This document shows positions 9,870 to 64,000 of a DNA stretch of 64,000 bases, piece by piece. Position numbers and translations under genes: made by a program. The DNA is from a virus. Taxonomy: Duplodnaviria > Caudoviricetes. The stretch is taken from the IMG/VR virus record IMGVR_UViG_3300035505_000178. The stretch is one strand, 5' to 3'. The notes under the pieces are model-generated. The model was not told the origin of the DNA. It searched no databases and was given only the letters and a program-made list of their open reading frames with translations. Position 1 is the stretch's first letter. Each line of letters begins with the position of its first letter.

Positions 9870-9921
9870 CAAATTTTAACATTTTTTAACTTGTAAAACT
9901 CTGTTTGTCATAGTACTATTG
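9861..9921 (+). promoter_or_regulatory. Putative phage promoter: 10-bp-period TTTTAAC repeats + TAGTACTATTG
   Basis: Same architecture at 27731-27810; lies directly upstream of the RNA cluster. Confidence 0.55.
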
Positions 9922-9931
9922 TTAGAAAGAT

Positions 9932-9995
9932 GTTCCAATAGTTTAGATATTAGAACGCAACAGTTGAAACTCAGGAGAATAACCTGATTGGAACA
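9932..9995 (+). ncRNA. tRNA-like RNA with truncated anticodon arm
   Basis: GTTCCAA/TTGGAAC acceptor, GTTT/GAAC D stem, TCAGG/CCTGA T stem; anticodon arm is only CAACAGTTG. Confidence 0.6.
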
Positions 9996-9999
9996 AAAT

Positions 10000-10072
10000 T
10001 GGGATATGGTGTAATGGTTAGTCACTACAGTTTTTGGAGCTGTCAGTACAAGTTCGACTCTTGTTATCCCAA
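10000..10072 (+). tRNA. tRNA-Gln(TTG)
   Basis: TGGGATA/TATCCCA acceptor; loop TTTTGGA; T loop TTCGACT. Confidence 0.92.
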
Positions 10073-10081
10073 CAATTAAAT

Positions 10082-10166
10082 GCTCGAATGGTGTAATTGG
10101 TAGCCACGTCAGATTTAAGCTCTGATGGTCATTGCGACTGTGTGGGTTCGAGTCCCACTTCGAGTA
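10082..10166 (+). tRNA. tRNA-Leu(TAA)
   Basis: GCTCGAA/TTCGAGT acceptor; loop TTTAAGC; long variable arm. Confidence 0.92.
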
Positions 10167-10418
10167 CAAAGTGATTTATTAACACAGTAAGACTATAAAG
10201 GAATTATTTCTGAGGACGTAATATATTTTGTAGCAATGTAAATAAATCCGCTCGTGATTTAGAAGTAGGTACGTAACTATCTAAATTAAACTCAAGAGTC
10301 ATTTGAGGTAGAGTTTTTAGGGAGGGGTTATGACGTGCAGCCAAAACATAATTACAGGATGCATACTGTATATTATCATTTAATCGTTTTACTGATTGTC
10401 TGGTTTGGATTAAAGTTT

Positions 10419-10491
10419 CCCGTATTCGTATATGGAGTACGCTCCGACTCTAAATCGGTGAGGTCTGCAGTTCGATACTGCTTATACGGGC
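10419..10491 (+). tRNA. Amber suppressor tRNA (anticodon CTA), probably Gln-inserting
   Basis: CCCGTAT/ATACGGG acceptor; CCGA-CTCTAAA-TCGG anticodon arm; T loop TTCGATA; late genes carry in-frame TAG. Confidence 0.88.
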
Positions 10492-10494
10492 TAT

Positions 10495-10567
10495 GCTCCC
10501 ATCGACAAGTTGGTTAAGTCGTCAGATTTTCATTCTGGAGTCAGGGGTTCGAATCCCCTTGGGAGTA
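10495..10567 (+). tRNA. tRNA-Glu(TTC)
   Basis: GCTCCCA/TGGGAGT acceptor; loop TTTTCAT. Confidence 0.92.
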
Positions 10568-10605
10568 CAATATCGGTAGATTAATTTTTTTAATTTTTAA
10601 ATTTT

Positions 10606-10779
10606 ATGTTTATGCGTAAAGTAATTCTTTTCTCTGCCTTTATTTTGGGCATGATGTGTTCTTGTGGCAATAAGCCAGCAAATGTTTCTACTTCTGCAGA
10701 TTCAACAGCAGTTGATTCAATTGAAGTTGTAGATACTTTGTCAGTAGATACATTAACTCTTGATACTTTGTCAGAGTAA
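10606..10779 (+). CDS. 57-aa lipoprotein with repeated D-(S/T)-x motifs
   Basis: MFMRKVILFSAFILGMMCSCGNKPANVSTSADSTAVDSIEVVDTLSVDTLTLDTLSE; SPII-type signal with S-C-G-N lipobox (alternative start 10612). Confidence 0.8.
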   Translation: MFMRKVILFSAFILGMMCSCGNKPANVSTSADSTAVDSIEVVDTLSVDTLTLDTLSE

Positions 10780-10821
10780 TTAATTAGATTAAAGTGTTAT
10801 AGCTCACTTTAAAAGCTATAT

Positions 10822-10896
10822 TGGAGGTATAGCTCAACAGGTTAGAGCAATTGACTGTTAATCAATAGGTTATAGGTTCGAGTCCTATTATTCCAG
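10822..10896 (+). tRNA. tRNA-Asn(GTT), bulged acceptor stem
   Basis: ATTGA-CTGTTAA-TCAAT; canonical D and T arms. Confidence 0.85.
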
Positions 10897-11020
10897 CTAA
10901 AGAGATAATTAAGTTTAAAGGACACATTCTTAATTATCATGCACTTCTTTTAGAATATAAACAATAAATAATTAGTGCGTTATTTGTAGTTTATTTAAAA
11001 AATGTAGGTCCGTTTTTGTT

Positions 11021-11097
11021 TGATACTTAGTCCAACCGGCAGGACGCTCATCAAAGTACTGAAATGAGAGGTAGTGGTTCGAATCTGCTAGTATCAA
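11021..11097 (+). ncRNA. tRNA-like RNA with 12-nt anticodon loop
   Basis: TGATACT/AGTATCA, GTCC/GGAC, CTCAT-CAAAGTACTGAA-ATGAG, T loop TTCGAAT. Confidence 0.75.
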
Positions 11098-11135
11098 CAA
11101 TTAACCATATGTGATTTAATTTTAAAAATTGCTTT

Positions 11136-11163
11136 AATAGACGGTCTGTGAAGATAGTCTATT
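11136..11163 (+). repeat. Conserved GYGA hairpin, copy 1
   Basis: aatagac-GGTCT-GTGA-AGATA-gtctatt. Confidence 0.7.
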
Positions 11164-11295
11164 TTAAATGATGTATATGGTCAACATCAACGCAGTTCTA
11201 TTTCGCGAGAGAATGTGCAGAGAGTAAGGTGCAAGACAGTAATGGAGAGGGCAGAAGTTCTTGAAAGTACACGATGGAAGTATATATCATTAAAA

Positions 11296-11369
11296 GGATC
11301 CGTAGCTCAGTTGGTTAGAGCAATAGACTCATAATCTGGAGGTCATAGGTTCAAGCCCTATCGGATCCA
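11296..11369 (+). tRNA. tRNA-Met or Ile2 (CAT)
   Basis: GGATCCG/CGGATCC acceptor; loop CTCATAA. Confidence 0.9.
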
Positions 11370-11370
11370 C

Positions 11371-11464
11371 AAACCAGAGAAATCCAGGTTAAAATCCTGT
11401 TTGGAAATAGACTACACATCATTGTTTGCCTATTTAGCATATAGTAGAATAATGCGCTGGTTTT
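11371..11464 (+). ncRNA. Candidate circularly permuted tRNA-like RNA
   Basis: 3' half (ACCAG, T arm, AATAGAC) precedes 5' half (GCCTATT-TA-GCAT...ATGC-G-CTGGT). Confidence 0.5.
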
Positions 11465-11466
11465 AT

Positions 11467-11541
11467 AGACCGTTAGTTCAGTTGGTTAAGAATGTTTGTC
11501 TTACACACAAAAGGTCGTAGGTTCGAGTCCTACACGGTCTA
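11467..11541 (+). tRNA. tRNA-Val(TAC)
   Basis: AGACCGT/ACGGTCT acceptor; loop CTTACAC. Confidence 0.92.
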
Positions 11542-11561
11542 CTAAAGGTTAAACATGTGTG

Positions 11562-11589
11562 AACTTCTGGTTCGTGAGAATAGGAAGTT
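11562..11589 (+). repeat. Conserved GYGA hairpin, copy 2
   Basis: aacttct-GGTTC-GTGA-GAATA-ggaagtt. Confidence 0.7.
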
Positions 11590-11593
11590 TTAT

Positions 11594-11664
11594 CTCCGAT
11601 TGACCGAGTGGTTAGGTGAAGATCTGCAAAATCTTAAACATTGGTTCGAATCCAATATTGGAGT
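11594..11664 (+). tRNA. tRNA-Cys(GCA)
   Basis: CTCCGAT/ATTGGAG acceptor; AAGAT-CTGCAAA-ATCTT; U discriminator. Confidence 0.9.
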
Positions 11665-11666
11665 CT

Positions 11667-12107
11667 ATGATAAAACACAAAAGTAAAGACGCAAAAGAAG
11701 ACCTAGAAACATTTCGTAAATTCTCTTCTGAACATTTAAAAAGTAGAAGAGAATATTATGGACATCTTTGGGAAGATGCTCCAGAAGAGTTCAAGTCTGA
11801 TATAATAAATCAGATTAATAAGGAAATGGAATGGATGTTTGATTTACATCCATATTATGTAGGTAAGAGATGGTTACAATGTAATGCTAGTAGATACCCT
11901 CGTTACTGTAGAGTTAGTAACATTGAATGGGAATTTCCAGATATTACTAATAGTGATAAATTATATCCTGTTGTAAAAAGTATGAAGATTGATGACCACG
12001 ACGTAAATGGAAAAATTACCTACAGTATGACCTATGAATATCCAGAAGAAGATTGGTTCTTAGATGGATGGGTCAATCGTAAGTCAAATGATATAGATGA
12101 TGATTAA
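11667..12107 (+). CDS. Hypothetical protein within tRNA cluster
   Basis: Start moved to ATG 11667 because the track start overlaps tRNA-Cys. Confidence 0.7.
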   Translation: MIKHKSKDAKEDLETFRKFSSEHLKSRREYYGHLWEDAPEEFKSDIINQINKEMEWMFDLHPYYVGKRWLQCNASRYPRYCRVSNIEWEFPDITNSDKLYPVVKSMKIDDHDVNGKITYSMTYEYPEEDWFLDGWVNRKSNDIDDD

Positions 12108-12158
12108 TTTTATAGTTTAAGTTAGTGTATAAATAATTTGTTTGTGAAAATAGATTAA

Positions 12159-12242
12159 TGGAGTGCTGCAGAGTTGGCGAACTGCGATAGACTGTAAATC
12201 TATTGACTTTGGTCTGAGGGGGTTCGAGTCCCTCCACTCCAA
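12159..12242 (+). tRNA. tRNA-Tyr(GTA)
   Basis: TGGAGTG/CACTCCA acceptor; ATAGA-CTGTAAA-TCTAT; long variable arm. Confidence 0.9.
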
Positions 12243-12269
12243 CGTATTGTGTTTTAGATAATCTGATCA

Positions 12270-12295
12270 ATGACTGGTCTGCGAAGATAGGTCAT
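12270..12295 (+). repeat. Conserved GYGA hairpin, copy 3
   Basis: atgact-GGTCT-GCGA-AGATA-ggtcat. Confidence 0.7.
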
Positions 12296-12296
12296 A

Positions 12297-12361
12297 GCAA
12301 TGTAGTGTAAGGAGCACGCTCAAAAGCTATGAGAAGTTTAGGTTCGATACCTGACATTGCA
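12297..12361 (+). ncRNA. tRNA-like RNA with 6-bp acceptor and non-canonical anticodon arm
   Basis: GCAATG/CATTGC, GTGT/GCAC, CTCA-AAAGCTA-TGAG, TTAGG-TTCGATA-CCTGA. Confidence 0.7.
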
Positions 12362-12427
12362 ACTCGTGTTTTCATGGTACGCTTATTAATTTAAGCATAT
12401 TAATTTTTTGATTGTTATTAATTTATT

Positions 12428-12459
12428 TAGGTAATTGGTTCGTGAGAATAGATTATTTA
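12428..12459 (+). repeat. Conserved GYGA hairpin, copy 4
   Basis: taggtaatt-GGTTC-GTGA-GAATA-gattattta. Confidence 0.7.
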
Positions 12460-12464
12460 AAAAC

Positions 12465-12554
12465 TGGGATGCTTGGTACAGAGTTGGAGAACTGTAACAG
12501 ACGATGAATCTGTTGGCATTTTTGCCTGAGTAGGTTCGAATCCTACCATCCCAA
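12465..12554 (+). ncRNA. tRNA-Tyr-like paralog with aberrant anticodon loop (CGATGAA)
   Basis: TGGGATG/CATCCCA acceptor; D arm nearly identical to tRNA-Tyr; G33; 6-nt acceptor-D linker. Confidence 0.75.
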
Positions 12555-12664: not shown

Positions 12665-13528
12665 ATGAAAGATTTTTTTAGTAAGTCTGGTATTACCAGC
12701 ACAGATGCAAATTTTTATGCGAATCTTGCACAAGAAAAGATTCAGAATAAGTTGAAGCAAATAGAATCAATGTCTTTTGTGAATACTTACGTTCAAGTCG
12801 TTGGAACAAACGGAAAACTTTTGATGTCTAAAGGAGTACATAAGTATAATATAGATGAAGTAATTAAAAATATTACAGAAGCTAATTCATTATGTGCTTG
12901 GTTAAGAGAAGCTATCAAGTATAAGGATCAGCTTTTAAAAGAAGCAGAACAAGAACTTAATAAAACTTATGAAGTTCCTTGTCCAGAACCTCCTGTACGT
13001 CCTACTCCTCTTACAGAAGATGACATCATCGCTCAGATGGATTCTAATGAGTATTATAAATACTTAGCATTGGAATCTGCAGCAGCTACTTATGGAAAAA
13101 TTATCCATCCTAAGAGACCGTTTAGCATTGCTAGACAGGATCTTTTGGATAAAGTTAATAACCCAATTTCTAAAGAAGGAACTGGAACAGATACAACTTT
13201 GTATTATTACGAAGAAACTGTTAATCCTGATGAAATTGAGGACTATTTTGAGAAATTGCAGAATGATTATAGAGCTTTTGAGAAAGAGCTTAATAACATG
13301 AAAGCAATAATTAAGGATCGTCTGGCTAAAGCTAATATAGACCTCGAAGAGGAATATAAGAAAGCTTATGCTAAATATCACCAAGAATATGTCGATTGGA
13401 CCAAAGCTGGTTCAGACTTCTATTGTAATCAGAAAGAGAAAGTTATTAATGAGAAAGATAGAATATCTAAGCTCAAAATTAAAATTCCTACTGATTTACA
13501 AGACATATTCAATAAAATCTCTAAATAA
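12665..13528 (+). CDS. Coiled-coil hypothetical protein (287 aa) with downstream structured RNA
   Basis: ORF track; helical, with a Pro-rich hinge PCPEPPVRPTP. Confidence 0.85.
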   Translation: MKDFFSKSGITSTDANFYANLAQEKIQNKLKQIESMSFVNTYVQVVGTNGKLLMSKGVHKYNIDEVIKNITEANSLCAWLREAIKYKDQLLKEAEQELNKTYEVPCPEPPVRPTPLTEDDIIAQMDSNEYYKYLALESAAATYGKIIHPKRPFSIARQDLLDKVNNPISKEGTGTDTTLYYYEETVNPDEIEDYFEKLQNDYRAFEKELNNMKAIIKDRLAKANIDLEEEYKKAYAKYHQEYVDWTKAGSDFYCNQKEKVINEKDRISKLKIKIPTDLQDIFNKISK

Positions 13529-40793: not shown

Positions 40794-41152
40794 AAGAATG
40801 GATATATTTGGAAAATGGTATAAATCTTGATGAAATATCATTAGATTATATCATATCTAATTTTAAAGATTATGGTATTGTAGAAGCAGAAGGATCTAAA
40901 CATAATAAAGATCTTGTTGATTATATATTGAAAGTTCTTAAAAATGCTCAGTTCATATTTTATAAGAGAGGTGAACAAGAAGTAGCTAAAGTAATATTTA
41001 GTAAAAAAGAGCATACTGCAGAGTCTGCTTTATATGCATATCTTTATACAAGAGAAAATCTTCTTAAAGAATATAAAAGAGTTGAACTACTTGAGTTCAA
41101 ATCAGATACTATAGATGGTGTTTATTATGGAATGTTTATTGTTGATTTATGA
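40790..41152 (+). CDS. Hypothetical protein
   Basis: ORF track. Confidence 0.65.
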   Translation: MKEWIYLENGINLDEISLDYIISNFKDYGIVEAEGSKHNKDLVDYILKVLKNAQFIFYKRGEQEVAKVIFSKKEHTAESALYAYLYTRENLLKEYKRVELLEFKSDTIDGVYYGMFIVDL

Positions 41153-42369
41153 TTAAATTTTTGTTGGGAAAAGCTTCTACAGGTAAATTCAGATATGCAG
41201 TAGTAGAGTGTGATGAGAAATGGAACGATGACGTTAAAGGATATATAATCCAAAGAAGTTACGGTCAAGTGAAAGGAAAGAATACTTTATCTCCTGCAAT
41301 TATTGTAGATAAAACCAAACAAAAAAGAAATTGGAAAGAACAATATACTCTTCAATTTAATTCTGAAGTTAAGAAATTTCTTGACAAGGGCTATGTTGAA
41401 GTTGAAAAACATCCAAATGAACTTACTCATGATGAAATGGACCATGCGTTTGGAGATGTCAAGACAAATCAATATGGAGTAATTAAACCTCAGTTAGCTA
41501 AACAAGCTGATAAAGTTACTAATCGAAAGATCTTTGAAACTACATGGATGATTAGTAGAAAACTTGATGGAGTTAAATCTCTATTTTATCTTGGAGAGGA
41601 TGGAGTAATCCATACAGCTTCAAGAGGAGGTGGTGATTACGATTGTTCAACTAATCACATTACTACATTCCAACCATTAGTAGATTTTTTCATGTCACAT
41701 CCTAAAGTAGTATTAGACGGCGAATTATTCAAACGTAACAAAAGTCTCCAGCAGATTTCTGGAGCAGCACGAATGGAGAAGAATGCTTATGATTGTGATT
41801 GGTTACAATATTGGATTTATGATTGTTATTTTCTAGATAATCCAGAATTGGATGCAGCTAGTAGACAGAATTTCCTTATAAAAGAACTTACTGTAGAGAG
41901 AACTATTCCTTATTATGTATCAACAGAAATGGACGAAGTTGATTCTCCTGTATTTCTTTTAATGCAAGGTATTGTCGAAGGCTGGGATGAAATGAAAAAA
42001 TTACACGATGTGTATGTTCAAGAAGGATTTGAAGGAGCAGTAATCAAAGATATGGATAAACCTTATAAACCAGGTTCTAGAGGTAATCAGCTTATAAAAA
42101 TTAAGCAATATAAGTCTTCTGAATTTAAAGTTATAGGTTATGAACTTGGACTTAGAGGTTCAGAAGATATGACATTTATTCTTGAAACTGAGAATGGAGA
42201 TACATTTAAAGCTATGCCAGTTGGTGATAGAGAAACTAAATCTGAATACGTTAGAAACTTTAAAGAGAAGTATAACGGACATATGGCAGAATGTACCTAC
42301 TTTAATCTCTCGGATGATGGAATACCTACACAACCAAAATTAAGAATATTCAGATTTGATTTAGAGTAA
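41149..42369 (+). CDS. ATP-dependent DNA ligase
   Basis: KLDGV, LDGEL, EGFEGAVIK, KIK motifs, C-terminal OB domain. Confidence 0.95.
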   Translation: MIKFLLGKASTGKFRYAVVECDEKWNDDVKGYIIQRSYGQVKGKNTLSPAIIVDKTKQKRNWKEQYTLQFNSEVKKFLDKGYVEVEKHPNELTHDEMDHAFGDVKTNQYGVIKPQLAKQADKVTNRKIFETTWMISRKLDGVKSLFYLGEDGVIHTASRGGGDYDCSTNHITTFQPLVDFFMSHPKVVLDGELFKRNKSLQQISGAARMEKNAYDCDWLQYWIYDCYFLDNPELDAASRQNFLIKELTVERTIPYYVSTEMDEVDSPVFLLMQGIVEGWDEMKKLHDVYVQEGFEGAVIKDMDKPYKPGSRGNQLIKIKQYKSSEFKVIGYELGLRGSEDMTFILETENGDTFKAMPVGDRETKSEYVRNFKEKYNGHMAECTYFNLSDDGIPTQPKLRIFRFDLE

Positions 42370-43118
42370 TGAATTTAAGTGATAGAATGAAAGATTACTA
42401 CGAAAACAGAGCTAAGACTAGTCTGCTTCGTAGAATGCCAGTCATTATAAGATTGGATGGAAAAGCATTTCATACATTTACTAAAGGATTTGTAAGACCT
42501 TTTGATAAAATTTTATCAGAAGCAATGCAATTAACAATGAAGTATTTATGTGAACAAATACAAGGATGTGTTCTGGGATATACACAATCTGATGAAATTA
42601 CATTAGTACTTGTTGATTATAAAACTTTAAAATCTGAAATGTGGTTTGATGGAGAAGTACAAAAAATCTGTAGTACTTCTGCTTCACTCGCGACAATGTA
42701 CTTTAATAAAATATTTAGAAAACTTGTTAACTCTAGTGATGCGAATGTTCATCAAAAATACATATATCAAGCAGCATTAGATAGAGGAGCGATGTTTGAT
42801 TCTAGATGTTTTAATATACCTAAAGAAGAAGTTACTAATTGCTTTTTGTGGCGACAAAGAGATGCAATTAGAAATAGTATTCAAATGGTAGGACAAACGT
42901 ATTTCCATCATTATCAATTAGAAGGTAAATCTTGTGAACAGATTGTTAATGATTTAATTGTTTATAATGATATTAAATGGGAAGATTTTCCTATTATGTA
43001 TCAAAGGGGATCGTGTTGTATTAAAGAAGATGATGGTTGGAAGATTGATAAAGAAATTCCAATATTTGTACAAGATGGACGACAATACATTGAAAAATTA
43101 ATAAACTATGAAGTTTAA
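42369..43118 (+). CDS. tRNA(His) guanylyltransferase Thg1-like protein
   Basis: IRLDGKAFH, QSDEI, FDSR, WRQ.DA.RNS motifs. Confidence 0.95.
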   Translation: MNLSDRMKDYYENRAKTSLLRRMPVIIRLDGKAFHTFTKGFVRPFDKILSEAMQLTMKYLCEQIQGCVLGYTQSDEITLVLVDYKTLKSEMWFDGEVQKICSTSASLATMYFNKIFRKLVNSSDANVHQKYIYQAALDRGAMFDSRCFNIPKEEVTNCFLWRQRDAIRNSIQMVGQTYFHHYQLEGKSCEQIVNDLIVYNDIKWEDFPIMYQRGSCCIKEDDGWKIDKEIPIFVQDGRQYIEKLINYEV

Positions 43119-54577: not shown

Positions 54578-57500
54578 AGAACTATGTACCAGCGCCACCT
54601 CCGCCACCAGTTCCATTTTTAGTATCACGTTTATACATTCTATATGTATCTTGCAAAGATCTAGGTAAAGCCTAACTCTTTGTAATTAATTCTCCTGTAG
54701 TAGTATCTCCGAATATATATCCAGCTAAATCTTTATATGTTTTAAATCCCCATTTGACAGCAGCAGGACTTGTATTATTCATAACATAATCAAATATAGG
54801 TAATGGACCTTTAAACTCTTCAAAGCTACTTGTAAATCCTTTATATATAAGTTCTGTCATAGCATTTGCAACCACATTTTTTCCATCTCCTTCTTGTTTA
54901 TGTTTTTTATAAGCAGGTGCTAATACATTTGAGCAGAGTTCATATAATAACATTGCTACAAGAAAATCAGACAATAATCTTCTAAGATTAGCTCTATTTG
55001 TCTTACTTGATAAAATATTTTCTTTTATACCTTGAATACCTCTTCCTTCATATAGTTCTCCAAATACATCCTTTACCGTTCTCATTACACCTTGAACCAT
55101 TAAAGGAATGTCCTCTAAATAAGGAATCCCTGTATCCTCAGTTGTGATGTTTCCATTTTCATCAATCCACAGTTTGTTACCATTTTCATCTTCTTTCTAA
55201 ACTTTTTCAAATTCATAAGAAGATTCTCTACGACTACCAAAATAAACATCATATATACCATTTAACCAAGTAGAGAATACTCCAATCTAAGAACCTACAG
55301 CTAAATTCTCATACATTGCTTTAGTACTTTTATCATAAGATCCATATATAGTATCTCCAAGATGTTTTACACTTTCAATTTGATTCTAAGTATATCCATC
55401 TGGAAGGTCAGTATCTAGTTTCAAAGTTAAATTTAATTCAGGATTTTGTTTATTAAATTCTTGTAAAAGACTTAAATATAAAGATTTCTATTTATTATAT
55501 TCTTCTATGTTGGATTTATCATTTTTAGCTAATAAACTAAATCTTTTATCTTTTCTCCAATTATAATTTAATTTTCCATCCTTAATATCATACGCTTCGA
55601 AAGAACCATCGTGTTTTAATTTAGCTAAGAACAATGTCATTCTATTTAAATAATCAGGCTTACTTAAAGAAAGATACATCCAATTACTAACATTAGTTAT
55701 ACCTCCTTTGTTAGTTTTATAACCTTGTTGCTATTGTTCACGATTAATATTAGAAATAAGATATTTACTATTCATCTTATCTAATAAATCGATACTCATT
55801 GAAGAATGAACTCCATGAGTTAATAAATACTAATATGCCCATAATACATCTGTAGAATCTACATCAGTTCTAAATTTAGTTGCACTTCTTACAACATTTG
55901 ACATAAATCCTCCTATTGTATCACGTATTGCAGCAACAGGATTCATTGCAATATAAGCAGTACTTATAGCTTTTCTCAAAGGAGCAATTTTAGTAATTAT
56001 CTATTTACTAGATTCTTCCATTATACTTCTATTAAATACCGAAGTTTTTAAATAATCGTCTATATGTTTAATAGTTTTAGCAAACTTCTAAGGATTTCCT
56101 TCTTCTCTAATTCCAGTTAATTTTAAATATAATAATATACCTCTAGATCTTACCAATGCTTTATTAAATTCTTCTTCCTTAAGATCATGATAAAGATAAT
56201 CAATTACTAAATTTTGAATGTTAGTTTCAAACTAATTAACACCAAATTTAGATATAAGTCTAGCTCTACCTTTTTTAGTTTCAGAACTTTTAAATTTATT
56301 ATACATCTACATATTTTCAATGTATTTATTTACTTGTTCTTCTTCTTCCTAAGTCATAATACCTTCATATAATTCTTTAAACAATTCGGTAGGGTGTGTA
56401 GTATAATACTTTGTTTTTCTTCCTAAATCTTCAAAAAATGCGGAAGGATTACTCCATTTAGTAGATTCACTAGCCTATTCTAATGGAACCCATAATGCAT
56501 TCTCTTCTGTAGAAAGAATTGTTTTAAGATTATCTCTAGTTACATTTTGAATACGTTTAGAATTAATCAAATATAACACTTCTTTTAAAAATTCTCTTTC
56601 TTCTGTTTTTAAATTGTTTGTCATATCAAAAGGATTTTTAAAGAATAAATCATTATCTTTAAATTCTATTAAATTTTCAAAAACAGAACTTTGATTACCT
56701 ACTGCCCAATTCTAAAATTTAGAATATCCTTTTTTCTCGTAATATTTTAAACACTTTAAATTGAAGTCAGAAACTTCTCCGTCAAGTCTGGTAGATATAT
56801 TATGAATACCATCCTATAATAATTTACTAACAACTCTTACGTGAGAATTATCCATATTCTAAGGTCTTGCAAATAGACGTTCAAATTCTTCAACGTCTTT
56901 TTCTTCTATTCTTACAATTCCGCTAAGTCTATCTAATGCAATTGATGCATCAATTAATAATTTAGCAGCAGAAGAAATCATTGGATCTCTAGACTTAGAT
57001 TTTTCAATAAGTGTATCAGGAGAAAGTCTAATTGCTTTTTCATTAAGGATTTTTGACAATTTATCAATTAATTCTTCTAACCTTGATATTTGAATTTCTG
57101 TTGTTTCGGCAGAAGCTAATGAATCGGATAAAACTCCACTAATGTCATGTCTCATTCCGTCAGAGTCAGATCCAGATATTAATTCTTTCAACTAATTTAA
57201 ATCGGATTTAGATAAATCAGGATTATTTTGCATTATGCTATAATATTCATTTATAAGAACTGTAACTGGAGAAACATTTTCAATTTCTTTAAAATGATTT
57301 TCCATTTTTAATTGAGGTTCTTTTTTAGATATTATAGAATAAGCTTTTACGAAGTTAGGTACAACCATTTGAATAGGATAACTTTGACTAGTAACATCCG
57401 TACCAAGTCCTCCTACAACTTGTATCTCTCCTAACTTAACATCGTTTCCTAGTGAAGGAATTATTTCATTTAATACGAACATTGTTCTCATCATTTCAAT

Positions 57501-59174
57501 GTTACCGTAAGTAGCTTTCAATAATGCTCTACCTTGACTATCTTGAGCATTCATGTCTGTAAGATGAAATCCTAGGATATTCTTACGACCATTAAGCTAA
57601 GTAGTTTTTGAAAGGTTTAAACTAGAAAGAGATACAATATTAAGTTGTCCTGATTTATTTTTAAAAAGAAGTATATTACAATTGTTTAAAGTAGGATTAT
57701 CAACTATTTCCCATTCATAAATAAATTTTTCTTTACCTGTCTCATCATTCTTAATTACTTTTGACTTTTCAAAGTAAGGATAAAAAAATTCATTCAAATA
57801 ACTATTATTGAAACTAGGAAATCCATTACGACGAGCACTTTTAAGTTCAGTTATTATACCTTGTGCGCTTAATGATCCAATATCTGATTTAAGTAAATCG
57901 TCTTTCATAGATTCTACAAAATTATAAACATCTTTGTTTTTAGAACCTCTTGTTGAATCCTCCGTCTAAAATTTAATTCCATTAATTGTTAATGAATAAC
58001 CTGTATCTGGCTATTCTCCTACTTCCCAATACTTCCAATTTTTATCAATGTATTCTTCTATTGTTTGAGTTACACCATCAGCTAAAACATCTTTACCTGG
58101 AAACGCTGTTTTTAACTGTTTATTTATTTTGTCTATAGATTCATCATTTATTTTAATTTCATTAACGGAAGATCTTATAAATCTTTGAGCTTGTTTCATT
58201 TCTTCGTGCATAATGAAAGCTCCATTTTTATGACTATAACATTCAGAAGGATGTACTTTAATATCATCAATACCACTAAAATCAGAATTATAATCGAATA
58301 CTACAGGAACAACATTAAATCTTATATTCTTAGAACTAATTCCGTTATACTAAAGTATTTGACCTAATAATGCAAATTCATGTCTATATTTTTCTTTTTT
58401 AGCTCTATCCCAAAAACTAGGAGCTTCATGAGAAGTTTTAATATTATAAATTTCTAATGATCCATCAGGTTTAATAACTAAATAATCAATGTGTCCTACA
58501 ATTGTTTCATTAGAATCTCCAAGTTTTGCAGTAACATTTAAATTTTTAATTACGTAAGGGGAAGAACTATCTCCAATTTCATGAGATTCCTTTCCATTTT
58601 TTATATATACCTACTTTAAAACGTCATCAGAAATTTCTCTCTAAATCTTTTCAGCTAATGGTTCGAAAGTTGTTCCCTTTGTTAGTTTTTCGGTTTGTGA
58701 ATATGTTCTATTATCTCCTAGAATTATTCTATGAAATTCTTTACCATCGTTACCTATTTGTTTCCAACTTTTCTATATATTGTAAATTCTTTGATTTATT
58801 TCTTCCTAAGATAAACCCTGCTCTGCATATTTAGATTTCATTTTATCTAAAAACTATTCATCATTTAAAACAGGCATAATAGGATTACCTTGAGTATCAT
58901 TATATTTATTAGAATCAATAAACGATTGAAGAGTATAATCAGCCCCTCCTTTTTCAATTTCACTACCATCATCGGTTATATGAGTAACTTTTCTTCCTTC
59001 ATACTCTTCCTTTCCTTTCTTTTTTATCTCTGATAATTTGTCGTATATCTTCTACTATGTATCATCATCTCTAGAATAAAGAATATCATGTAACTTGGAA
59101 GCATCTTCTTTTAATTCTTCTGATAATTCCTAATATGAATATTCCTTGTTATTAAATACATATTTACATTCCAT
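54576..59174 (-). CDS. Giant late/virion (RNAP-module cargo) protein, ~1532 aa, TAG read as sense; PD-(D/E)xK-like segment
   Basis: All six - strand track fragments share one frame; the breaks I inspected are TAG; ATG 59174 is coupled to the upstream TAA; ends TAA 54576; GHIDYLV...IYNIKT motif. Confidence 0.82.
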
Positions 59175-61903
59175 TATTCACAATTTTCTATTATACTTTT
59201 ATTCTTTATTCCTTCAGAAATAGCATTAGTAATTTTTCTTTGTATTTGAGTGCTGTTAAGATTATCATTATTCCATAAACTATCAATTACCGTAGAAAAA
59301 GTTACTTTACTATCTAATTGCTCAGATTTATTTAATCCTTTATTGAAAGAATTAAGAAATCTACTAAAAGTACTTTTAGGTAAAGTAAGAGTATCATTAA
59401 GTTTAGTAATTAATTCATCTGTAAACTTATCTATTTCTTCTTGAGAATTAGTTCTAAAAGCTTCTCCAAAAACTTTACTACTCTACACTTTATTACCTAA
59501 ATGTCTTACTAATTTTTCTTCTAACTTATCGTAATAACTTAGATTCTTATATGTTTCCTAATCAACAACAGAGTCTAGATAACTTAATCTATTCTTACTG
59601 TTATATTTTGAATAAAGTCCTTTTAATAATTTAGTATAAGCTTCGAAATTACGACCTCTTATTATTCCAAACATTACATGTAAAGCTTCATGAATTAAAT
59701 CAGAATCTTTAGCTGTTGTTTGATTTATATAAATTGTATTATTATAAACGAAAGATTTTATTTTTGAAGTATCTTCGTCTTTATCAAATAAAAGTTTGTC
59801 ACTTCCTGCTTCTTTTAATTCTTTCAGCTATTCATCATCAACTATTTCTATTTTCAATCCTTTAAAACGACTCTCAAACGAATCTTTTAAATTCCACAAA
59901 GAGTCTGTAAGACTTTTTACAGGCTTCTTAATATCCTTTCCACTATAATTTATATTTTCTTCTTTATAATGTCTAATGTATGCTTTATATTCCTTATTTG
60001 CAGATTTATACATTTTATCGACTACAAAGAATTTTTTACCAGCATTATTAATATCCTATATTATAGTATTTATTTTAGACATTGTATCCTAAGAAAGGTT
60101 TTCATTATCTTTTAATTCCTACTCTAATTTAGAAATAGATAAATCATTTTGTACCATTGCGTACATAAATGTTCCAACTTGTTCAGGAGTAGTAAAAGAA
60201 GATATGTTTATACCGTATTTTTCATTATAAAATTCTATAATATGATCATATCTATTTTCAATTAAAGCTGAATCAGCAGAAGGAAGAGTAACTTTTTCTT
60301 CTATTTTATAGTTTATACAAGATAACACCTATCCTACTCCTAATGGATAAGATAATGTAATAGTTCTAGTAGCAACTTCGCGCTTGAGATTAACTAACGC
60401 AGCATCATTTACATTCTTATATCTATTAAACGCGTCTATTTGATTCTTACATTTTTCTATAGAATTGAATCTAGGAGCGTCATAAAGATTTGGAGATATA
60501 GGACTAGATGTAATTACATATGTATCTTCGTTTTCAGGAATTTTATAAATATAATATCCGTTATAAGGAGTAGGTTCTTCAACAGTTTTAATTATTGAAT
60601 CCCATCCTAATCCGAATTGAGTTTCTACAGTTTGTCTATTTCTTGACAAATATATTGTACCTTCATCTGTAATATCTCTATATGCAATTGTTCGATTTCC
60701 GTTATTATCTTTTACTACATAAATGTCTCTTTCTTTTCCTCCTATTTTTATAGTATGACCTTTAAAAAATTCTTGTGCTTGTTCTTCTGATAAACTATTA
60801 ATATCAAATTTTTCAGCATCAAGTTGAGTAGAATTTTTTAATTGTTCATTCTTTTCTTTAATTATTTTCTTTATAGTTGCTTTTAATCTTTCAGAAGGAA
60901 CTGGTTTATAACCTTCTTTAATTGCAGTAACACTTTTGATTTCGTATTCACGTAATACAAAATCATTATCAAAATACTATTTTAATTCCTCTGATAATTC
61001 TTCTTGCGACAATTTAAAAAAATTATCTTTAGATTCATATTTCTTTTTAAATTCTTCAAAATTTTCAGATAGTATTTCATAGATTTTACCTTTCTTTATT
61101 TCTTCTAACTTCCAATCTCTAGAATTTTTTCTAAATTCATGAGCTAAGGGAGTATCGTTTTCCATAACTATCTAATCATTTAATTCTCTAAAGAAATTAT
61201 CAATTGTTTGGTTTATGTGTATTTGTTCTCCGTTAATTTCAAGGATTCCTTTATATTCCTAATCTTTTGGAACTTTATATAATGACTTATTATTTAGATA
61301 GTTATTTATAAAGTCTTTAGTTTTATCAAATCCAAAATGTTTAGCTATTGCATTAATTTTAGACTCATATACTTTTTTTAAATGATCATCTTTTATTTCA
61401 TTATTATCAGTTAAAATAGCTTCTGCTTTTTTTCTAGTTCTTTCAGTTTTAGCAAATGCTTTTACGTCATTCTCATTTCTAAATATATATAGTACTGTAT
61501 CTTTTAATCCTTCAACTGGAGTTTCTCCTTTTTTAGTTGAAGGTTTTATTACTATTCGTCCATATAATTTTTCACCATTATACGTTAAACGATCTCGTAA
61601 CAGATAATGATAAGGTTGATCTATACTGTCTATATCAGAAAATACATCTGGATATAATGATTTTAAATCGTCGAAAGAAGCATTAGGAAATATTCCAAAT
61701 TTAAGAAAGTTACTTTTATCTGTAATGCTAATTGTCTTTCTAGATGATTGTAAATCATTTATTATTTGTCTTAATTCTCCTCTTTTATTTTCATTCAGAA
61801 ACTTAATAATATCATCAAGAGACTCCAGCTCAACTTGGCTAGAGTCTCTTGTTATATTTATAACATTACCGTTTCCGACTTCTAAGATAATGTCACATTT
61901 CAT
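59174..61903 (-). CDS. Late/virion protein ~909 aa with zincin HExxH, TAG read as sense
   Basis: Five track fragments in one frame; LIHEALHV near 59670-59700; ends ...IIENCE-TAA. Confidence 0.82.
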
Positions 61904-61907
61904 TAAA

Positions 61908-64000
61908 TTAACAATTTTTATAAATTAATAGTCTTCCTTGACGTATAAATCTAATTAAAGTATTTACTTGTCCTCTTAAATCGTAGTCTCCACTTTCAGT
62001 AAACAAATTTCTATTAGTAATTTTATTATGTAAATTCTAGAAAGAATATAACGATTCATCAAGATAACGTTTGAGTCTTTGTAATCTCTCACCTTCTGTT
62101 AATCCAGATCCTTCCAAATTAAGAGGGTATCCATTAAATACATAAGTAAATCCGTTCTTTCCGTCTTTAATTCTTTTAAATATTCTAATTCCGTTTGTTT
62201 GATCTGATACTTTAACATAAGGTTCAGTTCTATAAATAAGAGATCTTTCAGAATAAACAGTAGGAGCTATATAAACTAAGAAATCAGTTGTAGAATCCTT
62301 ATCATTCTCATCAGTAATCATGTCAATGATAGAATCACTCAATTCTTTAGAATCTTGTTTTCCAAGATACTAATAATATTTATATAATTCAGTTCCAGGT
62401 GTAACAGATTCTGAGAATAAAGCTGTTAAAAACTTACCACCTAATTTGTTATTATTAACAGCTAAATTATATAGCATTAATATATCAGCAATTGAATAGT
62501 CTCCATTAAATAATTCAGGATGATCTTTAGTTGATTCCTTTAATTCATTTAATGCAACTAAGTATTTATCCATTGTTTTACGATTCGAAAAGCTATCATC
62601 TATAGTAGATAAATCCAATTTAGTTTTTAATATAGTAATTCCTTTATAAGAAGTAAGAACTAAATCTTTAACTAAATCGTTGTCTCCATATTTACTTCTT
62701 AAATAATCCAATAACTTTGTTTCAACAAAGTTCTTTAATGAATCTATTCCGTTTAAAGTATTTAAAAATATTTCGGATGCTGGCTATTCATCATATTCTG
62801 GTGTAAATTTAAATGTATCATCAAATCCTTTTAGACTAAGAGGTTTGTCTTTAGATAAGAAATATGATAGAACTATTACTTTGTCAGCATAATCGTTTAT
62901 TTTTTTAAATAAAGCGTCATCATTTTTCATATAAGTTAGCGTAGGATTCTCAAGAACTCTATCAATAATTTTAGCTTTTACAGAAAACTATCTACGTTGC
63001 TATAATGTATAATTAAGTAAATCTAAAATCTTGCTATAATGAGGAATCCTAGTTACTATATCTAAAACATTCCAATTGGATTTTATAAGATTAAAATATT
63101 TACTAGCTAATTCTCTATATGAAACTTGGTCACTATCAGAAGCTCTACTTGAATAATAAGTATTCGTTTCAGGAAGATATACTTTATCATTATTCAAAAA
63201 TTTATATAAATCAAAATTACCAAGCAATTTAGTTCTAGCTGCATCAATTAAGATTTCTCTTATTTCGTCATAAGTTAATTCTGGATTATTAGCAACAATA
63301 TTATTAATTACATTCTAATATTTTGTAACTAACTTACTATCATCTCCAGATACATTTCCTTGATCATCCATAGATTGAAGAATTTTAATGATTTGTTCAT
63401 AATTCTCTTCACTCTCTGAATATATACCCATTGCATTCTCTCTTCCTGAAACTGTTCCGTTCATCTTTTTTATTAACTTAGTTAATAAAATATCTGTTTG
63501 AGGAATACCTTGATTAAGTTTTAACCAAGTAGATGCTAAGTCAGAAGTTTCATTCGCTTGTTTAGTTACACTTTCAAATTCTGTTAAGTCTTCCGAAAAA
63601 TTAGTTCCGTCATAGTTACCAACTCTATCATTTTCAGATTGAATAGCACTATTAATTTCAGATACTAAATTATTAATCATAGAGAAAGCATAATTAACAG
63701 ACATATTGTTTGTATCAGTTGGTAACTAAGTTCCTTCTAACTTCTCCATTTCATCTGACTAAGATCTTCCTGTATTAGCTAAAATGTATGCTTGTAAAAA
63801 TTCTCCAAATGTATTAGCTTTATATTTACTTCGTAAATCTGGAATGTATTGAAATACCCATTTTAATTTATCATTAACTGTTCTATCAATTTCTCCAGAT
63901 TCTAACAAAGCTATCTAACGTTCTGTTTCATATTCTTCAAGAAGTATTCTTTCTTCATAACTCATTCTAGGTGAAATTAAAATTCCAGTTAAATCGATGT
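61908..64000 (-). CDS. C-terminal part of a giant late protein (possibly the virion RNA polymerase), TAG read as sense
   Basis: Four track fragments in one frame; ends ...LIYKNC-TAA; no catalytic motif in the window, so identity is inferred from position. Confidence 0.7.

Follow-up and report, generated by a model that had tools for sequence, protein, structure and literature searches.

What becomes of a transfer RNA (tRNA) gene whose anticodon arm can no longer decode while its other arms still pair, and does the survival of those arms mean that the RNA is kept for its shape? This question is raised by a tRNA array of 2.6 kilobases (kb) in a stretch of 64,000 nucleotides (nt) of DNA from a virus of the Duplodnaviria (Caudoviricetes), IMG/VR record IMGVR_UViG_3300035505_000178; the whole stretch is referred to here as the window. 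A sequence-only reading of the array had singled out five tRNA-like elements with paired acceptor, D and T stems and a broken anticodon arm, and had taken them to be selected for shape rather than for decoding. These elements (el1 to el5), together with the canonical gene to which one of them is related, are as follows:

9932-9996, + strand: el1, a structured 5' leader before tRNA-Gln
11021-11098, + strand: el2, a body of the tRNA-His type whose anticodon loop has 12 nt, without G-1, C73 and GUG
11371-11466, + strand: el3, the spacer between tRNA-Met and tRNA-Val
12159-12243, + strand: canonical tRNA-Tyr(GTA), of which el5 is a paralog; 45.2 bits on the Rfam tRNA family RF00005; target of a mobile cassette in strain L129
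12296-12363, + strand: el4, a compact tRNA-like element with loop AAAGCTA and an A1.A72 mismatch
12465-12554, + strand: el5, a tRNA-Tyr paralog with loop CGATGAA, in which the linker from the acceptor stem to the D stem is 3-4 bases longer

We suggest that el2 (from tRNA-His), el5 (from tRNA-Tyr) and el4 are non-decoding tRNA relics in an array rewritten by nuclease cassettes and recombination, a reading for which we see the balance as even, and that these relics are probably still processed into tRNA-shaped RNAs. Comparisons between strains cover the window and six sister contigs, which were found through protein clusters at 90% identity and whose identity over the colinear parts of the array is 96-98%.

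tRNA bodies with non-decoding loops

In el2 the acceptor stem consists of 7 Watson-Crick base pairs (bp), and the D, anticodon and T stems have 4, 5 and 5 bp, with TTCGAAT as the T loop. The anticodon loop, CAAAGTACTGAA, is 12 nt long and lacks U33. Infernal aligned el2 to RF00005 with an 11-nt loop insertion and 43.3 bits, above the gathering threshold of 29 bits, in a search of a short slice of the sequence, the filters having dropped el2 in larger scans; ARAGORN labels it tRNA-Leu(aag). In similarity comparisons el2 scored 69-75 against the tRNA-His genes of relatives, while all other tRNAs gave a mean of 41.6 (standard deviation 6.1, maximum 59). The tRNA-His genes of relatives encode G-1 opposite C73; the corresponding bases of el2 are T at -1 and A at 73, and it has no GUG anticodon. 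With tRNA-His as its closest match and these features missing, el2 is thus a former decoder stripped of its anticodon and identity elements. A search for the reverse complement of its loop found no target elsewhere in the window.

Pairing is complete in every stem of el5, its long variable arm among them, and its T loop is again TTCGAAT. Its anticodon loop, CGATGAA, differs by U33G, G34A and A36G from CTGTAAA, which is invariant in 14 tRNA-Tyr genes (the window and 13 relatives). Since el5 aligns with tRNA-Tyr over its full length and has lost the anticodon, it descends from a decoding tRNA. The linker between its acceptor and D stems is longer by 3-4 bases, and it does not reach the RF00005 threshold; its best Rfam match is tRNA-Sec at 25.1 bits, under the threshold of 47 bits. 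An identity as tRNA-Sec was rejected on this score and on the lack of a UCA anticodon. Likewise, neither el2 nor el5 can be explained as an intron-bearing tRNA, as their loops are still non-decoding after removal of the 4-5 nt 'introns' proposed by ARAGORN. Canonical counterparts of the two elements, namely two tRNA-Tyr(GTA) and one tRNA-His(GTG), are found in most of the complete genomes of relatives that were examined, where 25-28 tRNA genes are spread across about 25 kb.

The remaining tRNA-like element, el4, scores 35.7 bits on RF00005, also above the gathering threshold, and is labelled tRNA-Ala(agc) by ARAGORN. In its anticodon loop, AAAGCTA, positions 33 and 37 are A and U. The element further shows an A1.A72 mismatch, a D loop of 5 nt, a variable loop of 3 nt and no nucleotide 26, and therefore its lesions extend beyond the anticodon arm. 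Comparison with the tRNAs of relatives gave el4 no clear isoacceptor family. A paralogous relation to the CTA suppressor tRNA of the array was considered and rejected, as the suppressor ranks only 44th of 190 in global similarity and resembles el4 in its short D loop and T loop alone.

The other two elements are of a different kind. The fold of el1 consists of a closing helix of 7-8 bp and a hairpin of 4-5 bp (z = -2.35), its 'T loop' is AGAATAA, its D loop lacks GG and C74 is absent after the element. No match to the tRNA clan was obtained for el1 at E<=10, even in a search of 85 nt, and skeletons of the same grade (7 Watson-Crick acceptor pairs, 5 Watson-Crick T pairs and a D stem) occur four more times elsewhere in the window. 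It begins 10 nt after a promoter-like TACTATTGT at 9914-9922, and is best read as a structured leader; as a tRNA mimic it is unconvincing. The fold of el3 is no better than that of shuffled sequences (z = -1.32), it has no tRNA-clan match, and 81 of its 96 bases (11376-11456) are gone from strain L128. On the same three grounds el3 was rejected as a permuted tRNA; it is an ordinary, dispensable spacer. The original observation is therefore confirmed for el2, el4 and el5, but not for el1 and el3: the stems of el2, el4 (with its A1.A72 mismatch) and el5 do pair, and el2 and el4 pass covariance-model scoring, while el5 stays below threshold, el1 is a weak case and el3 finds no support.

Turnover at the anticodon loop

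In strain L129 the tRNA-Tyr gene that matches window positions 12159-12243 is split within its anticodon loop by an insert of ~507 nt (L129:1283-1900). This insert holds an open reading frame (ORF) of 113 amino acids with a PD-(D/E)XK_5 domain, a predicted nuclease, and a tRNA-Tyr(GTA) of its own. The same cassette splits another tRNA-Tyr in the distant relative G004 (L072:1485-2074), where bases 1-39 and 39-85 of the interrupted gene flank it. The cassette ORFs of L129 and G004 are 80% identical, more than either of two backbone proteins compared, a flanking protein of 287 amino acids (~40%) and a Thg1-like protein (62-67%). Empty sites with an intact gene are present in the window itself (12159) and in the relative G005. 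Paralogs of the cassette ORF precede tRNA-Ser genes, and a further relative has a GIY-YIG gene beside a tRNA. By these features the cassette appears to behave as a free-standing homing-endonuclease cassette, similar to SegB, with the ORF as the predicted nuclease.

Comparison of the window with L125-L131 shows that live tRNA genes of the array are also exchanged between strains. The tRNA-Leu gene (10082-10167) has been replaced as an allele, with 26 differences that are compensated in all stems, and tRNA-Cys (11594-11665) and tRNA-Tyr (12159-12243) each show two swapped pairs in the anticodon stem. The tRNA-Tyr of strain L128 is a recombinant of 5' and 3' parts across the loop, and contains G.U pairs. 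Cassette insertions, allele swaps and this recombinant together identify the array as a hot spot of turnover, with the anticodon loop as its break point.

Homing endonucleases are known to cluster with phage tRNA regions and to reshape them (PMC2330249; PMC13096335). The SegB clusters of T4 and T6 described there are similar to the present array in having a nuclease ORF amid tRNAs, presence/absence polymorphism, gene conversion and a duplicated tRNA-Tyr, and the class to which the locus belongs, in which homing-type nucleases have shaped a phage tRNA cluster that contains tRNA relics, is already known from them (PMC2330249, PMC13096335). In contrast to SegB, the ORF here belongs to the PD-(D/E)XK_5 rather than the GIY-YIG type, the cassette carries its own tRNA-Tyr and it lands in the anticodon loop of the resident tRNA-Tyr, while el2, el4 and el5 bear small loop lesions rather than an insert. 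Both the cassette itself and the site where it lands appear to be new.

These features suggest how the three elements may have come about. They would once have been decoding tRNAs, in transcription units shared with live tRNAs, and would have kept the acceptor/T-arm body intact. Free-standing genes for nucleases, each bringing a replacement tRNA with it, would insert in the anticodon loop, and recombination would next exchange whole tRNA alleles between strains. Copies that had become redundant or superseded would then persist for a time as relics, with no selected function required. We infer that el2, el4 and el5 originated through insertion and recombination events of this kind, and that they are damaged in the anticodon loop because it is there that the tRNA genes of the family are hit. 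A loop that is at once the landing site of a cassette and the breakpoint of allele exchange would provide a route to tRNA look-alikes with intact stems and broken loops that does not involve selection for shape.

Relics of other kinds are present in the relatives. One is a tRNA-Lys relic in which the anticodon loop is intact and the 5' side of the acceptor stem and one strand of the T stem are missing; another is Met-like and has no D arm; and one variant of a tRNA-like gene described below, gene X, has a deletion of 7 nt in the T stem. Since such relics broken in other arms exist, a reader looking for cloverleaves will notice only those with intact stems. The argument that random decay would not have spared the stems five times accordingly finds no support, as two of the five elements are not tRNA-like, relics of other arms exist and the loop is a target of the cassette.

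Relics or RNAs kept for their shape

Several observations weigh against the view that el2, el4 and el5 are relics without a function. The first is their processing context. Five hairpins with GNRA loops and the core TGGTYYGYGARRATAG are present in the array, their outer stems covary, and in four cases the distance to the tRNA or tRNA-like gene that follows is 0-9 nt:

11136-11163, + strand: leader hairpin with GNRA loop and core GGTCTGTGAAGATAG
11564-11587, + strand: leader hairpin immediately 5' of tRNA-Cys
12134-12157, + strand: leader hairpin immediately 5' of tRNA-Tyr
12270-12295, + strand: leader hairpin abutting el4
12432-12455, + strand: leader hairpin 9 nt 5' of el5, 88% identical to that of tRNA-Tyr (family D10)

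The same motif, again with covarying outer stems, stands ahead of tRNA-Gln, tRNA-Leu and tRNA-Gly in relatives. It probably acts as a leader or processing signal of pre-tRNAs that is specific to the family. The leader of el4 and el5 is shared with live tRNA-Cys and tRNA-Tyr. All live tRNAs of the array have a C after the discriminator, which el2, el4 and el5 also keep, and the three would thus appear to be co-transcribed and processed like tRNAs. Between the first hairpin and tRNA-Met lies a purine-rich stretch of 130 nt (11164-11295) that contains no ORF and no tRNA.

A second group of observations concerns conservation. Compared with its canonical homologs, el2 has 9 of 21 stem pairs altered on both sides and el5 has 7-9 of 22, and in neither is any pair left unpaired. 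Judged from these paired changes, the divergence of both elements took place mostly under structural constraint, though this constraint may predate the loss of the anticodon. Among the seven strains, el2 has no variable column in 78, compared with 7/123 and 21/197 in its flanks (5.7% and 10.7%), a difference with P ~0.001 when counted by columns and ~0.03 when counted by mutational events, the changes in the flanks being clustered. No such difference is seen for el4, with 0/68 variable columns, or for el5, with 1/90 (C12502T, at loop position 32), as 314 nt of spacer around them are likewise invariant, and their conservation therefore carries no specific signal. The claim of selection for shape is thus not established by these seven closely related strains: el2 alone exceeds its own flanks, and el4 and el5 are conserved like the spacer that surrounds them.

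Two further points are of a general kind. No scar sequence ties el2 or el5 to the known cassette, and phage genomes usually shed useless DNA fast.

Another observation comes from relatives rather than from the window. Gene X is a tRNA-like gene between tRNA-Gly(GCC) and tRNA-Cys, found in 12 of the 20 relatives examined and on 22 IMG/VR contigs. Copies in relatives are located at:

L065:14404-14487: gene X
L069:11140-11220: gene X
L072:14526-14606: gene X
L067:15767-15849: gene X

The acceptor and T body of gene X is invariant, its anticodon stem covaries (CCCAC/GTGGG in some copies, TCCGC/GCGGG in others) and its loop of 13-19 nt is hypervariable, with 8 variants on the 22 contigs. In the output of ARAGORN, gene X is either missing or labelled Leu(aag) or Tyr(ata). 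The combination of a constrained body and a free loop is the pattern expected under selection on shape and foreseen by the sequence-only reading, here in relatives, and el2 resembles gene X in its design.

Taking decoy and processing punctuation together, we regard retention for shape as possible but doubtful. Somewhat unlikely, in our view, is the form suggested by gene X, namely that the family keeps tRNA-bodied RNAs with a free loop (el2, el5 and gene X) as decoys or sponges for host proteins that bind the tRNA body, for example nucleases directed at tRNA-Tyr, or as small RNAs in which a tRNA scaffold presents a working loop. Parallels for RNAs of this kind exist. The stable RNAs 'species 1 and 2' of T4 (rnaC/rnaD) lie in its tRNA cluster, are co-transcribed with it and do not decode; their acceptor end is like that of a tRNA, and they have no known function. 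They are unrelated in sequence to the elements described here, exceed them in length and do not obviously derive from any particular tRNA. YrlA and the bacterial Y RNA modules also have the acceptor, D and T parts of a tRNA body but no decoding anticodon arm; scans with Rfam at E<=10 gave no match to a family of the YrlA or Y RNA type, and a Ro60/Rsr partner was not searched for.

That the elements are selected for shape as decoys or sponges, which would soak up host nucleases or other defence proteins that bind the tRNA body and so spare the decoding tRNAs, we consider improbable. This proposal would account for the whole tRNA-Tyr body of el5, with its different variable arm, for the conservation of el2 above its flanks and for the constrained body and free loop of gene X. 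Nucleases that act on tRNA-Tyr include retron-Eco7 PtuAB (PMC11555353) and Septu, which cuts the variable loop, and overexpression of a phage tRNA-Tyr gave the host tRNA partial protection from Septu (PMC13096335). The compensated anticodon-stem swaps in the live Cys, Tyr and suppressor tRNAs would also fit an arms race with nucleases that recognise this arm, but may instead be due to allele recombination, as in the case of tRNA-Leu and the L128 recombinant. Phage tRNAs that evade nucleases (PMC10264068), including the T5 tRNA-Lys that counters PARIS (PMC11464382) and the T5 tRNA-Tyr that counters retron-Eco7 (PMC11555353), are similar to the elements in their altered loops and in the involvement of tRNA-Tyr. 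In contrast to el2, el4 and el5, in which the anticodon is lost, these tRNAs keep a 7-nt loop and their anticodon and act by decoding. In agreement with this, rescue from retron-Eco7 was lost on changing the anticodon of tRNA-Tyr (PMC11555353), so that decoding rather than titration was what counted in that case. Also difficult to reconcile with decoys is that el4 and el5 are no more constrained than spacers, that gene X is absent from 8 of the 20 relatives and broken in one lineage, and that the same aberrant loops have no homologs in IMG/VR, where exact-pattern scans gave no match for el2 or el5 and, for el4, two matches that are not tRNA-like and are due to chance. If the decoy proposal were true, these would be the first phage RNAs retained as tRNA-shaped decoys, and would place a counter-defence at the level of RNA beside the known supply of replacement tRNAs.

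Equally hard to favour is a role as processing punctuation, in which RNase P, RNase Z and the CCA-adding enzyme would recognise the body, and cleavage would free the neighbouring tRNAs and set the 5' end of the mRNA downstream (gene at 12665). Recognition by RNase P and RNase Z requires the acceptor/T-arm body, and the elements have this body intact with only the anticodon loop free. In addition, C74 follows el2, el4 and el5, the leader hairpins of el4 and el5 are the same as those of live tRNAs, and el5 is the final unit ahead of the gene for the 287-amino-acid protein. However, cleavage sites are already provided by the flanking live tRNAs, relatives have other genes instead of an array at this position, and el1 and el3, which had been placed in the same class, are not tRNA-like or are dispensable.

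A function as unusual working decoders, with expanded or U33-less loops that read special codons or cause frameshifting, is most improbable: it could draw on the recoding of TAG described below, on the atypical CTA suppressor in the array and on the anticodons AAG (el2) and AGC (el4) given by ARAGORN, but it is opposed by the 12-nt loop of el2, the absence of U33 from all three elements and the U37 of el4, by the lack of G-1, C73 and GUG in el2 and of G3:U70 in el4, by the 3-4 extra bases in the core linker of el5 and by the fact that, to our knowledge, A34 anticodons are not used in bacteria for the codon boxes of AAG and AGC. Reading el2, el4 and el5 as non-decoding relics has a practical consequence for annotation, as the standard calls of tRNA-Leu(AAG) and tRNA-Ala(AGC) would skew the tRNA inventory of the phage and any argument from codon usage.

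The phage and the rest of the array

The window belongs to a gut phage of ~167 kb with ~30% GC. The gene for the flanking 287-amino-acid protein is on record on a longest contig of 167 kb, and DNA identical to that of the window is present on eight other public contigs. Among 5.8 billion proteins, none falls between 99% and 44% in identity to the 287-amino-acid protein, whose distant relatives come from a family of gut phages of 175-190 kb. A single-protein search of IMG/VR gave no match, the GenBank phages contained nothing related to the array beyond generic tRNA similarity and only two weak matches to the flanking protein, and the nearest record, the 18-kb fragment G001, held nothing matching the array. 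A scan of the window for sigma-70 promoters and terminators gave the same counts as shuffled sequence.

The + strand of the window carries densely packed small ORFs followed by genes of replication and nucleotide metabolism, including helicases, a primase-like Toprim protein, NrdD, a dUTPase, a ligase and a sigma factor. An ATP-dependent ligase (41149-42369) is followed immediately by a Thg1-like 3'-5' nucleotidyltransferase (42369-43118; Pfam PF04446, E = 3e-31). The nucleotidyltransferase is kept in 14 of 16 relatives at 62-67% identity, and a database search with it yielded no relative closer than 60%. The tRNA-His genes of relatives already encode G-1, which leaves the substrate of the enzyme unclear. 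A need for 5' editing throughout the family was considered and rejected, as mismatches in acceptor pairs 1-3 are nearly all C.A mismatches of the initiator type.

On the minus strand, the late region at 54579-63998 contains ORFs of 1533, 916 and >696 amino acids that are open only when TAG is read as sense, whereas ORFs in the standard code sum to 610 amino acids in the same region. Of the 17 standard-code ORFs there with at least 80 amino acids, 14 stop at TAG, as against 4 of 96 on the + strand. Because the late ORFs are open only with TAG as sense, the phage recodes TAG in its late genes.

In the array, ARAGORN reports 11 tRNA genes, all on the + strand and within 10000-12363, and Rfam RF00005 recovers nine tRNAs at the gathering threshold. 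The array has nine canonical tRNAs and a suppressor, compared with the 25-28 tRNAs of most complete relatives. The suppressor tRNA (10420-10491) is atypical, with an acceptor-D linker of 1 nt, a D loop of 5 nt and an anticodon stem of 6 bp, and had no Rfam tRNA match in a scan of 3.5 kb. The window and strains L127 and L131 have CTA as the anticodon of this suppressor, and L125 and L130 have TCA together with a compensated change of the closing pair (A10447T / T10455A). The window copy of tRNA-Asn (10822-10897) has an extra A (10825) and G10827, and may be impaired; five sister strains have a clean acceptor stem of 7 bp. In the purine-rich stretch ahead of tRNA-Met, indels between strains rewrite the 5' part (11105-11127).

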